Of a stretch of DNA of 17,132 nt, positions 1-12,419 are shown piece after piece. Made by a program: the position numbers and the translations under genes. Origin of the DNA: Candidatus Bathyarchaeia archaeon (GTDB lineage Archaea > Thermoproteota > Bathyarchaeia > Bathyarchaeales > Bathycorpusculaceae); contig JAVZLS010000019.1 of NCBI GenBank assembly GCA_038883715.1, forward strand, positions 1-17,132, written 5' to 3'. Positions within the stretch are counted from its first letter, which is position 1, and each line of letters opens with the position of its first letter. The notes beneath the pieces are model-generated. The model searched no databases. It was not told the DNA's origin and worked only from the letters and a program-made list of their open reading frames with translations.

Positions 1-1631
1 TTTTCCCTCGCTATTTTCTTCGCCTTCTCATAACCAGCGTCCGCATGCCTAACTATGGCTGTTCCAGGGTCTGTTGTTAGAACTGTGACTATGCGTTTTT
101 CAGCCTCTTTTGTTCCGTCAGCCACCAAGCACATGCCAGCATGTATACTATAGCCTATTCCCACGCCTCCGCCGTGGTGGACGCTTACCCATGTGGCGCC
201 AGCCACAGCATTCAATAGCGCATTCAGTATGGGCCAGTCGGCTATGGCGTCGCTTCCGTCCATCATGCCCTCTGTTTCACGGTTTGGCGAGGCGACGCTT
301 CCTCCGTCCAAGTGGTCTCTTCCAATCCATACGGGGCCGGAAAGCCTCCCGCTTGCCACCATGTCGTTCATTATTTTTCCGAAGCGGGCTCTCTCTCCAA
401 AGCCCAGCCAGCAGACGCGGGCTGGCAACCCCTGAAACTTAACATGCTCTTTTGCCTTCCGTATCCATCGGCAAAGCTCCCTGTTGTAGGAGAACTCCTT
501 CAAAATGATATCGTCTAAAGTGTAGATGTCTTCGGCGCTTCCTACAAGGGATGTCCAGCGGAATGGCCCCCGTCCTTCGCAGAACATTGGCCTAATATAG
601 CGTTGAACAAAGCCTGGAAAGGCGAAGGCGTCTTTGAATCCGGCGTTGTAGGCTTGCTGGCGGAGATTGTTACCGTATTCGAAGGTTATTGCGCCTTTTT
701 CCATCATTTTAACCATGGCTTCCACTTGGGTGCGCATGCTTTGGCCGGCTCTTCGTAGATATTCTTCTGGGTCGTTTTTGCGGAGTTCATCGGCTTCCTC
801 CTTTGATAGTCCAGCTGGATAATAGCCATTCAACGGGTCGTGGGCGCTGGTTTGATCTGTCAGCACGTCTGGTATTATTCCCCTCTTCAAGAGTTCAGGG
901 TGCACCTCAGCCGCGTTTCCAAGCAGTCCAATGCTTCTTGGAATGCCTTCGCGTTTTGCTTCCAAAGCCATTTTCACAGCCTCGTCTAAATCATCTGTCC
1001 ATGTTTCCAAATAACCATGCCTTATGCGCCTGTCAATTGCGCGTTTATCTATTTCCACAACAAGCGCTACGCCCTCGTTCATTGTCACGGCTAGGGGCTG
1101 GGCTCCCCCCATTTCGCCTAAACCAGCCGTTAAGACTAGTCTGCCTCGGAGGGTTCCGCCGAAGTGTTCACGGGCTACCGCCGCCAAGGTTTCATATGTG
1201 CCTTGCAAAATGCCTTGCGTACCAATGTAAGCCCACGAGCCAGCGGTCATCTGTCCAAACATGATTAAGCCTTTCTGCTCCAGCTCGTAGAAATAGGCCC
1301 AAGTCGCCCATTTCGGCACAAGCATGGCATTAACTATTAGGGCTCGGGGCGCCCACTCGTGGGTTTTGAAGACGGCTACGGGCTTGCCGCTTTGAATAAG
1401 CATGGTTTCGTCTGGCTCCAGCTCAATGAGGGTTTCAACAATTTTTTCAAAACACTCCCAGTTGCGGGCAGCCTTGCCAGTGCCACCATAAACAATCAGC
1501 CTTTCGGGGTCTTTAGCCACTTCAGGGTCAACAACGTTAAAGAGCATTCGCAAGATTCCTTCAATCTGCCAATTCTTGCAATGCAACTCGTGGCCGGTCA
1601 AACATTTTATGGGTCTTTCCAACTTTAACAA
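1..1631 (-). CDS. hutU: Urocanate hydratase (urocanase); 3' end truncated by the window edge
   Basis: Absent from the ORF track because there is no stop in the window. Manual minus-strand translation is open down to base 1: LVYGG-like [97 protein letters not shown]. Start taken as TTG 1631 after an AGGGTGA RBS; GTG 1643 and TTG 1622 are alternatives. Confidence 0.96.
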
Positions 1632-1671: not shown

Positions 1672-3006
1672 TTACTCTAATCCTTTGCTGAAGAGTTTAG
1701 CTGCTTCGGCTATGGAGGCTTCCTCGTCAACAACTGTTCTGCCGTTCTTTATTACTTTGTCCACGAGGTTTACGCCGAAACGGTAGCCGAGAAAAACATG
1801 GTTTGGCGCATTCAAAATCACTATGTCCGCTTTCTTGCCAACCTCTAGGCTTCCAACTTCGCTGGCCCTTCCAATGGCATGAGCAGCGTTAATTGTGGCT
1901 GCTGTTATGGCTTCGGCTGGCGTCATCTTCATGAAGTAGCATGCAAAGGCTATGACGAGCTGCTGGTTTTCAACCCAACAACTAGGGTTAAAGTCTGTTC
2001 CCAAAGCCACTGGAATACCATAATCAATCATTTTACGAGCTTCAGCGCAACGTCCAGTCATGAGGCTGAAGGCTGCTGCTGGGAGCAGAACGGCAATAAC
2101 GCCCTTCTCAGCCATAGCCTTAAGGCCAACATCAGAAGCGAACAACAAGTGCTCGGCTGAGACTGCTTCAAGGCTGGCTGCAAGCTCAGCACCGCCCAGC
2201 TGGCTCATTTCGTCCGCGTGCACTTTTAGCCTTAAGCCGTGTTTTTTGGCGGCTGTTAGAATTTTTCTTGTCTGTTCTAAGTTGAAGACGCCTTTCTCGC
2301 AGAAAACGTCGCAGAACTCCGCCAGCCTCCTCTCGGCGACGGCTGGAATCATTTCATCAACAACTAGGCTTACGTACTCTTCCGGGTTGCTTGCGTATTC
2401 GGCTGGGATGGCGTGAGCTCCCATAAAAGTTGGAACAACGTCAACAGCGTGAAGCTGGTTTAAACGCTTAATAACCTCCAAAATCTTCAACTCATCCTTT
2501 GTTGTTAAGCCATATCCGCTCTTCGCTTCAACTGTTGTTGTGCCATATCGTAGCATAACATCTAAAGTGTTTAAGCCAAAGCCCAAAAGCTCGTCTAGGC
2601 TTGCTTTGCGGGTTTCCCTAACAGTTTTCAGTATGCCTCCGCCAGCCCTTAAAATCTCCATGTAGGAGGCGCCTTCAATCCTCATTTGGAACTCGTCTTC
2701 CCTCGAACCCGCAAAAACCAAATGCGTATGGGGGTCAACAAAGCCCGGCAGAACGGTTTTTCCGCTGGCGTTCACAATGTTTTCAGCTCTAAAGTTTTTC
2801 CTTATTTCCGAGGTTTTTCCAACGGCTAATATTTTGCCGTCTTTTATGGCCACGCATCCGTTCTTGATTATTCCAAGCTCCCGCATACGTTTGCCAGTTC
2901 TTGGCTTCTCGTTGCCGCCGGCCAATGTAATAAGCTCGCTGGCATTAACAATGAGTGTATCAGCTTTTTCCTTGGCAGCGGTCTTTCCAGTTTTAGCTTT
3001 ACTCAA
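1672..3006 (-). CDS. hutI: Imidazolonepropionase (amidohydrolase superfamily)
   Basis: Motifs PGFVDPHTH, GGGILKTV, GTTTVEAKSGYGL, HADE, GTDFNP, GSLEVGKKAD. Likely start is TTG 3006 after GGAGG, overlapping the ftcD stop; the track start at 3075 lies inside ftcD. Confidence 0.95.
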   Translation of the reverse strand: MSKAKTGKTAAKEKADTLIVNASELITLAGGNEKPRTGKRMRELGIIKNGCVAIKDGKILAVGKTSEIRKNFRAENIVNASGKTVLPGFVDPHTHLVFAGSREDEFQMRIEGASYMEILRAGGGILKTVRETRKASLDELLGFGLNTLDVMLRYGTTTVEAKSGYGLTTKDELKILEVIKRLNQLHAVDVVPTFMGAHAIPAEYASNPEEYVSLVVDEMIPAVAERRLAEFCDVFCEKGVFNLEQTRKILTAAKKHGLRLKVHADEMSQLGGAELAASLEAVSAEHLLFASDVGLKAMAEKGVIAVLLPAAAFSLMTGRCAEARKMIDYGIPVALGTDFNPSCWVENQQLVIAFACYFMKMTPAEAITAATINAAHAIGRASEVGSLEVGKKADIVILNAPNHVFLGYRFGVNLVDKVIKNGRTVVDEEASIAEAAKLFSKGLE

Positions 3007-5946: not shown

Positions 5947-6900
5947 ACGCCAAAACCCGTAATCGTTGTTCATGGCGGCGCTGGAAACTGGCAGCCTGAA
6001 CGCATAAACCCGGGACTTGAGGGCGTAAAAAAGGCGGCTAAAACAGGCTTTGACATTTTGGCTAAGGGTGGAAGTGCCCTTGACGCTGTTGTTGAGGCCG
6101 TCGCCGTTATGGAGGATGAAGGCGTCTTCAATGCTGGTTATGGTTCAAGCCTAACAATAGAGAAGACCGTGGAGATGGAAGCCTCAGTCATGGATGGAAA
6201 AACTTTGAAGGCTGGGGCTGCCGGGCTCTTGCGGGACATTAGGAATCCGGTTAGGCTTGCAAGAATTGTTATGGAGAAGACAGACCACGTCTTCATCGTC
6301 GGCGAAGGAGCAGAAAAGCTCGCAAAACTTTTCAACCTTGAAAGGCGGAACCCGCTTACGGAGCTCCGCCTAAAATATTATGAGCAGGCGAAGCAAGCCC
6401 TCCTGGATGGCAAGTTTGAACTGCCAAAACTTGCAGAACTGGTTAAAAGTCATCCAGAGCTTTTCGACCTTGAAACGGTTGGCGCTGTTGCCTTGGATTT
6501 GGAGGGAAACGTTGCAGCTGCCACATCCACAGGCGGTTTTCCATTGAAGATTCCTGGAAGGATTGGCGACTCGCCCTTGATTGGATGTGGCACCTACGCC
6601 GATAATAGGAGTGGTGCTTGTTCCGCCACAGGCGTTGGCGAAATCGCCATAAGGCTTGTTTTGGCGAAGACCGTTTGCAACTACATGGAGAGCGGCAAAA
6701 CCGCACAGGAGGCTGTTGAAGCCGCCATAAGACTTGTTAATGAGCGGATGGCTGGAACCTACAACTCCATGGGTTTAATCGCCGTGGACAAGCAGGGAGA
6801 AATTGGAGCCGCCCACAACTCTAAACATTTATGTTGGGCTTATCTTAAACCTCGAATGCAGGAGCCGGAAGCGGCATTAACGGCAAAAATTCTGAAGTAA
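5947..6900 (+). CDS. iaaA: Isoaspartyl peptidase / L-asparaginase (Ntn hydrolase, plant-type)
   Basis: PVIVVHGGAG (in frame upstream of the track start at 6058), FNAGYGS, EMEASVMDG, catalytic ETVGAVA, TSTGG, GRIGDSP, GCGTYA, TGVGE. The start appears to be ACG at 5947. Confidence 0.92.
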   Translation, partial: TPKPVIVVHGGAGNWQPERINPGLEGVKKAAKTGFDILAKGGSALDAVVEAVAVMEDEGVFNAGYGSSLTIEKTVEMEASVMDGKTLKAGAAGLLRDIRNPVRLARIVMEKTDHVFIVGEGAEKLAKLFNLERRNPLTELRLKYYEQAKQALLDGKFELPKLAELVKSHPELFDLETVGAVALDLEGNVAAATSTGGFPLKIPGRIGDSPLIGCGTYADNRSGACSATGVGEIAIRLVLAKTVCNYMESGKTAQEAVEAAIRLVNERMAGTYNSMGLIAVDKQGEIGAAHNSKHLCWAYLKPRMQEPEAALTAKILK

Positions 6901-7007
6901 ACCTTTTAAAATATGGGCGTGTAATCAAGGAGGTTTCTCGACAGCAGTCGAAAGAAAATGCTTAAAGCAGTCTTTTGAGGCTCTCACTATGCCAAGCCCA
7001 CGGTTAT

Positions 7008-7016
7008 GGGAGGTGA
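7008..7016 (+). promoter_or_regulatory. Strong Shine-Dalgarno GGGAGGTGA for the acidic micropeptide
   Basis: Near-perfect archaeal SD immediately upstream of ATG 7019. Confidence 0.75.
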
Positions 7017-7018
7017 AA

Positions 7019-7093
7019 ATGGTGTTCGAGGAAGAAGAGGAATGGGAAGAGGAAGACTGGGAAGAAGAAGAGTGGGAAGAAGAGGAATGGTAA
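7019..7093 (+). CDS. 24-aa hyper-acidic Glu/Trp repeat peptide MVFEEEEEWEEEDWEEEEWEEEEW, function unknown
   Basis: ATG...TAA with a strong SD. Four 15-nt repeats differ only at third codon positions. A T-rich tract follows. An in-frame ATG at 6989 is an alternative start. Confidence 0.75.
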   Translation: MVFEEEEEWEEEDWEEEEWEEEEW

Positions 7094-7112
7094 AAACCTT
7101 GAAGGAGTTTAT

Positions 7113-7132
7113 GTTTCCCTCGTTTTCTTTTT
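7113..7132 (+). terminator. Putative archaeal oligo-T terminator after the micropeptide gene
   Basis: Pyrimidine/T-rich run gtttccctcgttttcttttt. Confidence 0.45.
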
Positions 7133-7221
7133 AACCCGAAAAGTTTTTAGCACCGCGCCAATCTGATTTTAGGCTCATATTTATGTTGTGAGACACATAA
7201 CTAGATAGTTGCTGGTAAACT

Positions 7222-9021
7222 ATGACGCGTGTGGCAGTGTTAGACTCTGATAAGTGCAAGCCTAAGCGTTGTGGAAAACAGTGCCAACGCTTTTGCCCAA
7301 TGGTGAGGAGCCACGTTGAGGCAATCCGCTTCGAAGACACAAGGCCACTGATTGTTGAGGCTCTCTGCTCCGGTTGTGGAATATGCGTCAAAAAATGCCC
7401 GTTCAGCGCCATATCAATAGTGAACCTTCCAGACGAGCTGGAAAAGGAGTGCAGCCACAGGTTCGGACCAAACACCTTCAAGCTTTATAGGCTTCCCACT
7501 CCGTCACCAGGCACTGTTCTGGGGCTTCTTGGGAAAAATGGAATTGGAAAGACAACAACATTAAAGATTCTTTCCGGCGAGGTTAAGCCAAACCTTGGAA
7601 ATTATGAGAATCCGCCCAGCTGGAGCGAAATTATAAGATATTTTAGGGGTTCAGTGCTGCAGGACTATTTCCAGCGGATGAGTGAGGGCAAACTTAAAGT
7701 TGTGCATAAGCCCCAATATGTTGACAAGATTGCAAGAGCCGTTTCAGGAAGGGTTGGCGAGCTTCTCAGAAAAGTGGATGAGCGGGGCGTTCTTGAAAAT
7801 GTTGCTGAAAGACTTGAGTTGAAAACCATCTGGGATAGACCCATCGAAGCTCTAAGCGGCGGCGAACTGCAGAGGGTGGCTGTAGCCGCCGCGATATGCA
7901 GGGAAGCCGACGTTTACCTTTTCGACGAGCCCTCCAGCTATCTTGACGTGAAACAAAGGCTTGAGGTTGCCAGAGCCATAAGAAGCCTAAAAAATGAGGG
8001 AAAAATTGTCGTTGTAGCCGAACACGACCTTGCAATAATCGACTACCTCTCAGACCAAATATGCATATTCTACGGCGAGGCTGGCGTTTACGGAATAGTT
8101 TCCCACGTGCACGGCGTTAGGACGGGCATAAACATTTACCTTCAAGGCTATATTCCAGATGAAAATATCCGCTTCAGAAAAGAAGCAATAGTATTTCATG
8201 AAAAACCACCGACCATAAGCTTCGGAGCTGGAGAAACCCTCCTAAAATGGGATAGATTGGAAAAGACCTATGAAGGCTTCAAACTCGTCGCCCAGCCAGG
8301 AGAAATCAGAAAGGGCGAGATAATAGGGATTCTTGGACCAAACGGCATTGGAAAAACAACCTTTGTAAAAATATTGGCTGGCTTGGAGAAAACTGACGAT
8401 GGGAAAGAATTCAAAGAGCTAACAGTAAGCTACAAGCCACAATACATTTCTGCTGAATACGAGGGCACAGTGCAGGAACTTTTAACAAGTATAGCGAAGG
8501 AAGACTTCACATCGGGCTGGTACAAGGCTGAAATCCTCCAGCCTCTTGGAATTACGCCGCTTTTGGAGAGAAACATAGCCGAGCTAAGCGGCGGCGAACT
8601 TCAGAAGGTTGCCATAGCCGCATGCCTATCCAGAAAGGCTGAACTTTATCTTCTAGACGAGCCAAGCGCCTACTTGGACGTTGAGGAGAGGCTTAACATG
8701 GCGAGGACCATACGCCGAGTAATAGAGGCTAGAAACGCCACAGCCTTCGTTGTTGAACATGACGTTGTTGCCCAAGACTTTATTGCAGACCGTTTAATGG
8801 TTTTCACGGGCGAACCGGGAATAAGGGGCGTAGCCAACCCGCCCACAAGCCTAAGGGATGGGATGAACACTTTCCTAAGAGAGATGAATGTAACCTTCAG
8901 AAGAGACCCGGTCACGAAGAGACCCCGGGTCAACAAGGAGGGTTCAAAGCTGGACAAGTATCAGAAGGAGATAGGCGAATACTATTATGTTAGGCATGTA
9001 GCCATAACAGAAGAGGATTAA
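7222..9021 (+). CDS. rli1: Ribosome-recycling ABC ATPase ABCE1/Rli1
   Basis: N-terminal 2x[4Fe-4S] motifs CKPKRCGKQCQRFCP and CSGCGICVKKCP. Two NBDs (GKNGIGKT, GPNGIGKT, LSGGELQ twice, DEPSSYLD/DEPSAYLD). C-terminal FRRDP...RPRVNK. Confidence 0.98.
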   Translation: MTRVAVLDSDKCKPKRCGKQCQRFCPMVRSHVEAIRFEDTRPLIVEALCSGCGICVKKCPFSAISIVNLPDELEKECSHRFGPNTFKLYRLPTPSPGTVLGLLGKNGIGKTTTLKILSGEVKPNLGNYENPPSWSEIIRYFRGSVLQDYFQRMSEGKLKVVHKPQYVDKIARAVSGRVGELLRKVDERGVLENVAERLELKTIWDRPIEALSGGELQRVAVAAAICREADVYLFDEPSSYLDVKQRLEVARAIRSLKNEGKIVVVAEHDLAIIDYLSDQICIFYGEAGVYGIVSHVHGVRTGINIYLQGYIPDENIRFRKEAIVFHEKPPTISFGAGETLLKWDRLEKTYEGFKLVAQPGEIRKGEIIGILGPNGIGKTTFVKILAGLEKTDDGKEFKELTVSYKPQYISAEYEGTVQELLTSIAKEDFTSGWYKAEILQPLGITPLLERNIAELSGGELQKVAIAACLSRKAELYLLDEPSAYLDVEERLNMARTIRRVIEARNATAFVVEHDVVAQDFIADRLMVFTGEPGIRGVANPPTSLRDGMNTFLREMNVTFRRDPVTKRPRVNKEGSKLDKYQKEIGEYYYVRHVAITEED

Positions 9022-12156: not shown

Positions 12157-12221
12157 AAATTTAAAATAACACTCAATGCTTTATGTAGAAGGACACTGCA
12201 AACCTTTAGAGGCTGAAAAGT

Positions 12222-12419
12222 ATGAGCGAAGAAGGCGGCTTCGGAATAACAGCTGCAGAAAAATTCTTTGGGCTAATTCTAGTGATTGTTGGCGCTTTGG
12301 CTACACACTTCACTTTAACAAGCAGCAGCACGCTGGGCGTTTACACGTGGTTTTTTGGCTTTTTAGCCATAATTCTACTTGCACTTGGAGTTTTCCTCAT
12401 AATCGCCAAGGCTGAGTAG
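12222..12419 (+). CDS. Small two-TM membrane protein, unknown function
   Basis: Two hydrophobic stretches (FFGLILVIVGALA; WFFGFLAIILLALGVFLII), GAGG upstream, and it fills the top6A-infB gap. Confidence 0.75.
   Translation: MSEEGGFGITAAEKFFGLILVIVGALATHFTLTSSSTLGVYTWFFGFLAIILLALGVFLIIAKAE

Follow-up and report, generated by a model that had tools for sequence, protein, structure and literature searches.

An unannotated micropeptide gene of glutamate and tryptophan repeats, widespread in Thermoproteota, beside the gene of the ribosome-recycling ATPase ABCE1

This study concerns a stretch of 17,132 nucleotides (nt) of DNA from a Candidatus Bathyarchaeia archaeon (phylum Thermoproteota), hereafter the window, and a micro-gene in it that encodes a peptide rich in glutamate (Glu) and tryptophan (Trp). 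The window is one whole 17.1-kb contig of a 1.33-Mb genome assembly (41 contigs, 45% GC). On the + strand, a type-2 asparaginase gene is followed by the micro-gene, the gene of the ribosome-recycling ATPase ABCE1, a cytidine-deaminase-fold gene, the genes of topoisomerase VI B and A, an open reading frame (ORF) of 79 amino acids (aa), and the aIF5B gene; Cgi121, a THUMP-domain gene, and histidine-utilisation genes lie farther upstream. By translation, the micro-gene encodes the 24-aa peptide MVFEEEEEWEEEDWEEEEWEEEEW and ends with a TAA stop codon at 7091-7093. Coordinates are collected in Table 1. Judging from its homologues, the micro-gene belongs to an unannotated micropeptide family that is widespread in Thermoproteota. 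Gene callers miss it.

The micro-gene reads ATG GTG TTC, then four 15-nt units of the form (GAR)4TGG, where R is a purine, and then TAA. The peptide contains 16 Glu, 1 Asp, and 4 Trp, the last at residues 9, 14, 19, and 24. Tandem Repeats Finder reported a period of 15 nt with 4.1 copies at 7030-7090 (84% matches, no indels). Together with the translation, this confirmed a preliminary description of the window, made from the sequence alone, which had noted a 24-aa Glu/Trp ORF with Trp at every fifth residue. Differences among the four units are confined to third codon positions, and one of them changes Glu to Asp. The peptide has neither Leu nor Cys, and it has no Lys or Arg and thus no trypsin cleavage site. 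There was no second Glu/Trp stretch of this kind in the six frames of the whole genome.

We aligned 19 sequences of the family and tallied codon positions over the last 11 codons of 21 sequences. The first two codon positions were conserved and the third was variable, with 4, 4, and 10 variable columns at codon positions 1, 2, and 3, respectively. The frame was kept as the number of repeat units changed, and indels were 9 or 15 nt long, that is, multiples of three. The start codon of orthologues was ATG, GTG, or TTG. Distant families often have Phe instead of Trp and Asp instead of Glu, which keeps the chemistry and not the bases; in family f20, for example, Phe takes the place of Trp, a two-base change. 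Selection on the peptide, which had been proposed from the wobble-only changes among the repeats, was thus borne out by the relatives, whose changes fall at third positions and whose indels come in threes.

All three forward frames of the repeat are open, so the open frame alone proves nothing, and the region might be a purine-rich (GAR)nTGG repeat with a structural or regulatory role in DNA or RNA, or a chance ORF. However, the Shine-Dalgarno sequence (SD), start, and stop are conserved in the Glu/Trp frame only, conservation has a period of three, and the GAT/GAC (Asp) and TTT/TTC (Phe) substitutions seen in this frame preserve chemistry rather than bases. The region also matched no known RNA family: the sole match in an Rfam 15 search was MIR2118, at 18.8 bits versus a gathering score of 85 (E = 0.48). 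Its single-strand RNA fold was no better than that of shuffled sequence (z = 0.36), and the minus strand has no ORF of at least 20 aa across the micro-gene. We give a non-genic origin next to no credence. Several other coding readings were rejected: a 34-aa form starting at the in-frame ATG at 6989, whose extension close relatives either lack or have out of frame; an Arg/Gly ORF in the +1 frame (7006-7134), which has no SD of its own and overlaps that of the micro-gene; and antisense coding, given the minus-strand result above. The micro-ORF is likewise not the broken tail of a longer gene. The search for homologues in relatives that the preliminary description had called for returned frame-preserving homologues in abundance. 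With the frame-keeping homologues, the pattern counts against controls (see below), and the conserved SD, the micro-gene is shown to be a real protein-coding gene, as that description had held, as far as sequence comparison can show it.

ABCE1 orthologues were present in 41 of 41 relatives. To anchor the comparison without bias towards the peptide, we used 30 ABCE1 loci from 40 relatives of the same genus, family, and order. An in-frame Glu/Trp ORF lay about 165-196 nt before the ABCE1 start in 23 of the 29 loci with upstream DNA, and 21 of these 23 ORFs ended in Trp-stop. Among the six misses, G002 carries the peptide gene about 900 nt upstream of ABCE1, behind an insertion, and G026 carries it on a different contig. 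A second set consisted of 80 pattern-derived loci with 2-kb flanks, of which 78 were credible. ABCE1 was co-directional and downstream in 63 of the 78 (gaps of 48-1783 nt, median about 130), and it was head-to-head with the micro-gene in 4; the remaining 11 had no ABCE1 in the flank, one of them because the contig ends. Across classes, the upstream neighbour differs (asparaginase, THUMP/Cgi121, or Sua5) while ABCE1 stays. In the analysed genomes, gene order thus shows the linkage to ABCE1 that had been claimed for the micro-gene.

The signals around the micro-gene were compared among loci; what follows on promoter, terminator, and translation is drawn from sequence conservation. The SD GGAGGTGA, described beforehand as strong, is kept across the family alignment, with GGAGGTG immediately ahead of every start codon. 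Of 180 unique loci drawn from many lineages, 135 have a 5-mer of the SD core no more than 20 nt away from the start codon that was chosen. A TATA-like box had been placed at 6905, and this box, TTTTAAAAT, exists and is kept in 10 genus-level and near-genus sequences, but it is inconsistent in more distant family members; the family-wide box lies instead at 6960-6967. TTTTAAAAT may serve as a second promoter, or it may belong to the 3' end of the asparaginase gene. The region 6938-6967 is better conserved than TTTTAAAAT: TTAAA (6962-6966) and CGA are invariant in all 19 family sequences. In this region an element like a B recognition element (BRE), CGAAAGAAAA, which is a run of A, precedes the TATA-like GCTTAAAG, whose end is 41 nt ahead of the SD, and the two are the probable core promoter of the micro-gene. 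An inverted repeat, kept as TCGACA-N3-G(T/A)CGAA in most of the 19 sequences, stands just upstream as a candidate site for a regulator. Past the stop codon, the T-rich tract TTTCCCTCGTTTTCTTTTT, which includes TTTTCTTTTT at 7123-7132, is probably an archaeal oligo-T terminator. This part of the preliminary description also held: a run of at least five T occurs within 60 nt past the stop in 129 of 180 unique loci, versus 18 of 180 for a control run of at least five A. A scan for bacterial-type promoters and hairpin terminators gave 0 sites, as expected in an archaeon.

With its conserved TATA/BRE-like block and T-tract, the micro-gene appears INDEPENDENCE from ABCE1, which has a separate TATA-like box. 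This promoter-like region of ABCE1 (CGAAAAGTTTTTAGC and ATATTTAT) is conserved in the family alignment, and ATATTTAT ends 37 nt ahead of the ABCE1 ATG. G002, of the same genus, is informative here, as the peptide gene and ABCE1 are split there by about 850 nt of inserted DNA that carries ORFs on the opposite strand. Both genes keep their own signals, and the promoter-like region remains directly upstream of ABCE1. These results point to a micro-gene that is real and independently transcribed, although some read-through into ABCE1 may occur.

This bears on the suggestion that the ORF is a Glu/Trp-sensing leader. A cis-acting leader or upstream ORF, Glu-rich and ending in Trp, would stall or destabilise ribosomes and set ABCE1 levels by read-through of the T-tract or by reinitiation, acting as a feedback sensor of recycling. 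The co-directional position near ABCE1 in 63 of the 78 loci, with its short median gap, and the T-tract after the stop codon are compatible with this, and N-terminal acidic runs are described as destabilising translating ribosomes (PMC9718836, PMC11162784, PMC12673854). A leader or attenuator would, however, share a transcription unit with its target and always lie upstream in the same direction, and the micro-gene, judged by its conserved signals and its positions, does not. It is head-to-head with ABCE1 in 4 loci and has no ABCE1 nearby in 11. A gene for an RPB9-type zinc-ribbon protein (about 100 aa) intervenes in four loci (L063, L085, L114, and L194), and the TATA-like box stays with ABCE1 despite the insertion in G002. 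The conserved Trp/Phe residues, and the EEEEEW tails fused to other proteins (see below), point to a function at the level of the peptide. Because of the divergent orientation, the inserted genes, the stand-alone copies, and the TATA box of ABCE1 itself, a purely cis-acting leader is unlikely, and we rate this explanation as improbable. A role as precursor of a modified peptide, also put forward earlier, is backed by nothing we found; no maturase is conserved beside the gene.

Table 1. Features of the window and of the loci compared with it (positions without a locus name refer to the window).
Feature	Position	Strand	Remark
Type-2 asparaginase gene	6058-6900	+	upstream neighbour of the micro-gene
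TTTTAAAAT, TATA-like box of the preliminary description	6904-6912	+	directly after the asparaginase stop codon
Inverted repeat TCGAC-AGCA-GTCGA	6938-6951	+	just upstream of the BRE/TATA-like block; candidate regulator site
BRE-like CGAAAGAAAA then TATA-like GCTTAAAG	6949-6967	+	from the family alignment; TATA-like part at 6960-6967; probable core promoter
Shine-Dalgarno GGAGGTGA	7009-7016	+	GGAGG core ends 5 nt before the ATG
Micro-gene	7019-7093	+	24 aa
T-rich tract TTTCCCTCGTTTTCTTTTT	7114-7132	+	probable oligo-T terminator
Promoter-like region of ABCE1: CGAAAAGTTTTTAGC (7137-7151), ATATTTAT (7177-7184)	7137-7184	+	conserved in the family alignment
ABCE1, ribosome-recycling ATPase	7222-9021	+	Pfam Fer4_RLI, Fer4, two ABC_tran domains
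79-aa ORF	12176-12415	+	between topoisomerase VI A and aIF5B
Insertion between peptide gene and ABCE1 in G002	L269 (G002:C48) ~607-1500		opposite-strand ORFs
RPB9-type N-terminal zinc-ribbon protein	L063:2133-2441		several Thermoprotei lineages (this and the next three rows)
RPB9-type N-terminal zinc-ribbon protein	L085:2258-2566		
RPB9-type N-terminal zinc-ribbon protein	L114:1461-1742	-	
RPB9-type N-terminal zinc-ribbon protein	L194:1171-1470		
92-aa protein of G478 (f33)	L242:1237-1512	+	LysW-like zinc ribbon with Glu/Trp tail
Micro-gene upstream of S-adenosylmethionine decarboxylase gene, G415 (f23)	L241:915-1620	-	complete genome
61-codon open frame of Candidatus Nanopusillus	L125:~1838-2021		Asp/Glu/Trp tail ending EEEEW
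ABCE1 match of family f27 (example)	G421:C2:73780-75384		match begins at query residue 54

The distribution of the family was assessed with nucleotide patterns. At the level of the order, the pattern TGGGARGARGARGARTGGTRR (WEEEEW-stop, up to 1 mismatch) was found in 240 of 401 genomes versus 1 of 401 for the reversed pattern used as a control, and in 207 of 247 genomes of the window's own family. Across the phylum Thermoproteota, the pattern was EEEEW followed by stop or Trp; it matched in 125 of 301 genomes, and 13 genomes had a control match. By family, it matched in 22/22 genomes of f23, 11/14 of f16, 12/17 of f20, and 5/5 of f28. These tallies are lower bounds, as the patterns favour peptides ending in EEE(E)W, and absence means that nothing was found with these patterns in the sampled genomes. 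Two complete f29 genomes, for example, were missed by the pattern and carry a form ending in EEEW-stop, with the stop codon about 50 nt before ABCE1. When 60 genomes, covering 27 families of the phylum, were anchored on ABCE1, 28 of them had a Glu/Trp ORF within 1.5 kb upstream; these belong to families f1, f13, f14, f16, f19, f20, f21, f26, f28, f29, f32, and f35. Trp-stop ended 27 of the 28 ORFs; the 28th (L212) runs past the end of the retrieved DNA and is incomplete.

A scan of all bacteria and archaea, with each species represented by one genome, gave at least 120 loci. Most of the matches listed came from Bathyarchaeia or Bathyarchaeota, and other titles among them were Desulfurococcales, Desulfurococcaceae, Pyrodictiaceae, Hyperthermus, Ignisphaera, Thermogladius, Candidatus Aramenus (a Sulfolobales relative), and 'Thermoprotei archaeon'. 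Contigs with the odd labels Krumholzibacteriaceae and Nanoarchaeia look mis-binned, because they carry an asparaginase gene (L080) or a 74%-identical ABCE1 (L100), as in the window's family. In a sample of Asgard archaea, 8 of 151 genomes matched versus 7 with a control match, which is background; L262 was the sole match there that plausibly resembles a true family member.

The 131 unique peptides of the family range from 16 to 51 aa with a median of 23; about 70% of their residues are acidic, and a median of 4 are aromatic, mostly Trp and spaced every 4-9 positions. Many begin with a short hydrophobic stretch, and nearly all end with an acidic run and a C-terminal Trp. The C-terminal Trp is present in 130/131 and EEW in 125/131; since most of this set was gathered with a Trp-stop pattern, the unbiased figures for Trp-stop are the 21/23 and 27/28 of the ABCE1-anchored samples. 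In G478 and G454 the tail is part of a larger protein. The 92-aa protein of G478 consists of a LysW-like zinc ribbon and a Glu/Trp tail, which spans about 50 residues and closes with EEEEEW. It matches PF21344 at 29.3 bits (cut-off 27) and also PF09538 (FYDLN_acid), and its gene lies outside a lysine biosynthesis cluster. An 85-aa protein of G454 ends in PEEEEEW. As the tail is fused to folded domains and the terminal Trp is near-universal, the acidic-Trp tail suggests a C-terminal short linear motif that is read by a receptor, with the free peptide as its multivalent form.

An exact look-up of ten family sequences in a collection of about 15 billion predicted proteins found nine of them absent and the tenth without a name. 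Searches of a protein database were uninformative owing to low complexity: a 51-aa stop-to-stop stretch gave no candidate, and a 48-aa family member gave 1306 word-sharing candidates, none with E <= 0.01. Full-text literature searches returned no description of the peptide, though supplements on archaeal small proteins, Ribo-seq, or transcription start sites could list the ORF.

The contexts away from ABCE1 bear on function. Other factors of the small ribosomal subunit are often the neighbours there: the micro-gene is head-to-head with aIF1A-Rio1 in G454 and adjoins Rio1 in L045, and a locus of Candidatus Nanopusillus (L125) lies between NMD3 and aIF1A. In L125 the open frame of 61 codons begins with basic residues and carries a long Asp/Glu/Trp tail that closes with EEEEW; it may be a relative of the family from DPANN. 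Stand-alone second copies occur in unrelated contexts (L075, L083, L115, and L127), and another stand-alone copy (L066) adjoins a NUBPL/Mrp-type P-loop NTPase. In the complete genome G415, the micro-gene is far from ABCE1 and directly upstream of a same-strand S-adenosylmethionine decarboxylase gene; a link to polyamines for such a polyanion may, from this single case, be worth a look. The RPB9-type protein of L194, one of those encoded between a micro-gene and ABCE1, bears an acidic C-terminal tail of its own.

We tentatively propose, at somewhat less than even confidence, that the product is a free, trans-acting peptide of the translation machinery, and that its likeliest target is ABCE1 or the small subunit with ABCE1 bound. 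The proposal is made because ABCE1 is known to bind short acidic-hydrophobic peptides. Its 'multivalent interaction patch' is described as binding both the C-terminal 18-mer of aP1 (the stalk protein of archaea) and the N-terminal peptide of eIF3j, and the site is placed at nucleotide-binding domain 1 (NBD1) and the helix-loop-helix (HLH) (PMC7780240, PMC6125642). In native 43S complexes, the eIF3j peptide is reported to insert near nucleotide-binding site I (NBSI) and the HLH and is called an 'inhibiting peptide', and eIF3j stimulates splitting (PMC7780240). The product of the family would be a free, disordered polyanion of about 16-51 residues with about 70% Glu/Asp. Hydrophobic pockets would receive its Trp side chains as anchors, among them that of the C-terminal Trp, whose carboxylate is free, and the Glu runs would lie along basic RNA-binding or peptide-binding surfaces. 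There it would compete with acidic-hydrophobic tails or with RNA, and such competition would tune the ATPase and splitting cycle of ABCE1, or how the 30S subunit is cleared and used again. A more specific version, which we think unlikely, is a dedicated regulator of ribosome recycling, with the Trp residues anchored on the NBD1/HLH patch of ABCE1 or the peptide acting as an mRNA mimic in the channel of the ABCE1-bound 30S. It might then set the timing of ATP hydrolysis, of the release of ABCE1, and of the removal of mRNA and tRNA, as a free-standing archaeal counterpart, possibly a forerunner, of the acidic-aromatic tails of eIF3j and eIF1A.

Partners of the aP1 C-terminal tail are NBD1 of ABCE1, aEF1A, aEF2, and aIF5B. 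Like the micropeptide, this tail is a flexible acidic segment with hydrophobic or aromatic end anchors, and its 18-mer alone is reported to bind ABCE1 (PMC6125642). However, aP1 is tethered to the ribosome and uses L103, L106, and F107 in a short helix (L/GxxLF, as given in PMC6125642), whereas the micropeptide is free, far more acidic, and uses Trp. It ends in EEEEW, and the C-terminal L/GxxLF(G) of aP1 is absent from it. The peptide may still be a decoy for the stalk tail, as the preliminary description had suggested, or the nucleic-acid mimic or chaperone also named there. The single PF00428 (Ribosomal_60s) match of the genome is a separate aP1 gene on contig C3, whose product ends in EEAALEGLGALFG. 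Membership of the aP1 family was rejected for the micropeptide, as it has no PF00428 domain, no Leu, and no L/GxxLF. The N-terminus of eIF3j and the C-terminal tail of eIF1A are acidic with conserved aromatic residues (Trp in eIF3j). The eIF3j/Hcr1 protein resembles the micropeptide in this acidic, Trp-bearing N-terminal part and is the eukaryotic accessory factor of ABCE1, but it exceeds 200 residues, has a core that forms a helical dimer, and belongs to the eIF3 network; peptides of 24 aa, or of 16-51 aa in the family, have no room for such a core. Homology is not demonstrable for a 24-aa peptide of low complexity, and it is not established that the eIF3j segment located on ABCE1 is its acidic Trp motif.

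Several points weigh against a role on ABCE1. The peptide does not have the L/GxxLF motif that aP1 uses there, and the aP1 of this very genome has its own EEAALEGLGALFG end. Whole families that bear ABCE1 had no match to the phylum-wide pattern, namely f15 (0/50), f22 (0/11), f24 (0/8), f27 (0/19), and f31 (0/11); ABCE1 thus has no universal need for the peptide. In f23, in which every genome matched, the 1.5 kb upstream of ABCE1 contained no copy in 3 of 3 genomes, and the copy located in G415 is distant. Synteny with a housekeeping gene can persist without physical interaction, and a peptide of such charge could bind many basic proteins. A co-fold of ABCE1 (27-row alignment) with the 24-aa peptide (score 0.00) is not among these points and counts neither way, as the job is unlike the tool's calibration.

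There is also a serious rival that we nevertheless hold to be unlikely: a general polyanionic partner or nucleic-acid mimic that would neutralise, chaperone, or displace strongly basic proteins that bind nucleic acids (for example ribosomal or chromatin proteins, or SSB-like OB folds), with the ABCE1 linkage reflecting only an old housekeeping neighbourhood. DSS1/Sem1, and the acidic tails of single-stranded DNA-binding proteins (SSB) that end in an aromatic residue, are acidic, aromatic-anchored disordered segments, and the composition of the family (about 70% acidic, median of 4 aromatics) is like theirs. DSS1/Sem1 is also free and binds basic grooves with few conserved aromatic anchors. It differs in being eukaryotic, about 70-90 aa long, and non-repetitive, with the partners BRCA2, the proteasome lid, and TREX-2, which have no link to ABCE1, and there is no sequence relation. 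The stand-alone copies in unrelated contexts agree with a general role. On the other hand, the linkage to ABCE1 has held across classes while the upstream neighbour changed, the neighbours other than ABCE1 are enriched for 30S-binding factors, and in the window the gene has no conserved basic orphan protein as a neighbour.

The C-terminal Trp also recalls a signal for iron-sulfur (Fe-S) maturation, in which the acidic-Trp C-terminus would recruit an Fe-S delivery factor to ABCE1, as Lto1 does in eukaryotes. Rli1, the ABCE1 protein, is reported to need the Yae1-Lto1 adaptor, and the C-terminal Trp of Lto1 to be critical for bringing ABCE1/Rli1 to the cytosolic Fe-S targeting complex (PMC10245660, PMC4523923). 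The targeting complex recognition (TCR) motif of the cytosolic iron-sulfur assembly (CIA) system is given as [LIM]-[DES]-[WF]-COO-, in which the aromatic residue and its terminal position count for most, and QDW is enough by itself (PMC10245660). The micropeptide shares an acidic residue before an obligatory C-terminal Trp, as well as the functional tie to ABCE1, and it has the terminal aromatic with a free carboxylate (Trp-stop in the 21/23 and 27/28 above) and Glu at the [DES] position, so that its last two residues fit. The position of [LIM] is, however, taken by Glu (EEW in 125/131 peptides). The stand-alone copy beside the NUBPL/Mrp-type NTPase (L066) would suit this explanation, whereas the genome has no other ORF of at least 100 aa ending in [ED][ED]W and hence shows no sign of a general targeting code; three such ORFs end in [ED][ED]F. 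PMC10245660 reports that the bacterial and archaeal counterparts of the clients compared there do not carry the motif. We consider an Fe-S signal highly improbable. The CIA receptor complex (Cia1, Cia2, Met18) is, to our knowledge, not known in archaea, and no search for it was made in this genome.

LysW and ArgW are small proteins that also have an acidic, Trp-containing C-terminal tail, and G478 fuses a LysW-like ribbon to a Glu/Trp tail. In LysW and ArgW the C-terminus is an EDWGE motif, whereas the micropeptide ends in Trp, has no zinc ribbon, and lies outside any lysine or arginine biosynthesis cluster. It has no Cys, and only the fused 92-aa form of G478 matches the zinc-ribbon family PF21344.

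Other observations were made at the compared loci. In four order-level loci without the peptide gene (L026, L028, L029, and L030), a shared element of about 25 nt, CGCCGTCGCCACACATCATCCC, lies about 150-200 nt upstream of ABCE1; it matched no Rfam family at the gathering score. In family f27, matches to ABCE1 do not begin before query residue 54, and the open frames that contain them are 785-926 aa long, which suggests that these ABCE1-like genes are extended or fused at the N-terminus. In the window, the 79-aa ORF ahead of aIF5B has no Pfam match.

ABCE1 occurs in all archaea and eukaryotes and is essential in them, and its control off the ribosome and the clearing of the archaeal 30S subunit once the ribosome is split are open questions. 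If the peptide acts on ABCE1, it would add an unknown component to one of the best-studied steps of translation. Its gene would be phylum-wide, kept beside ABCE1, and missed by annotation and by standard proteomics, because it is below the usual length cut-offs of gene callers, is too low in complexity for similarity searches, and offers no Lys or Arg to trypsin. The finding shows that conserved micro-genes can hide in 'intergenic' DNA beside core genes.

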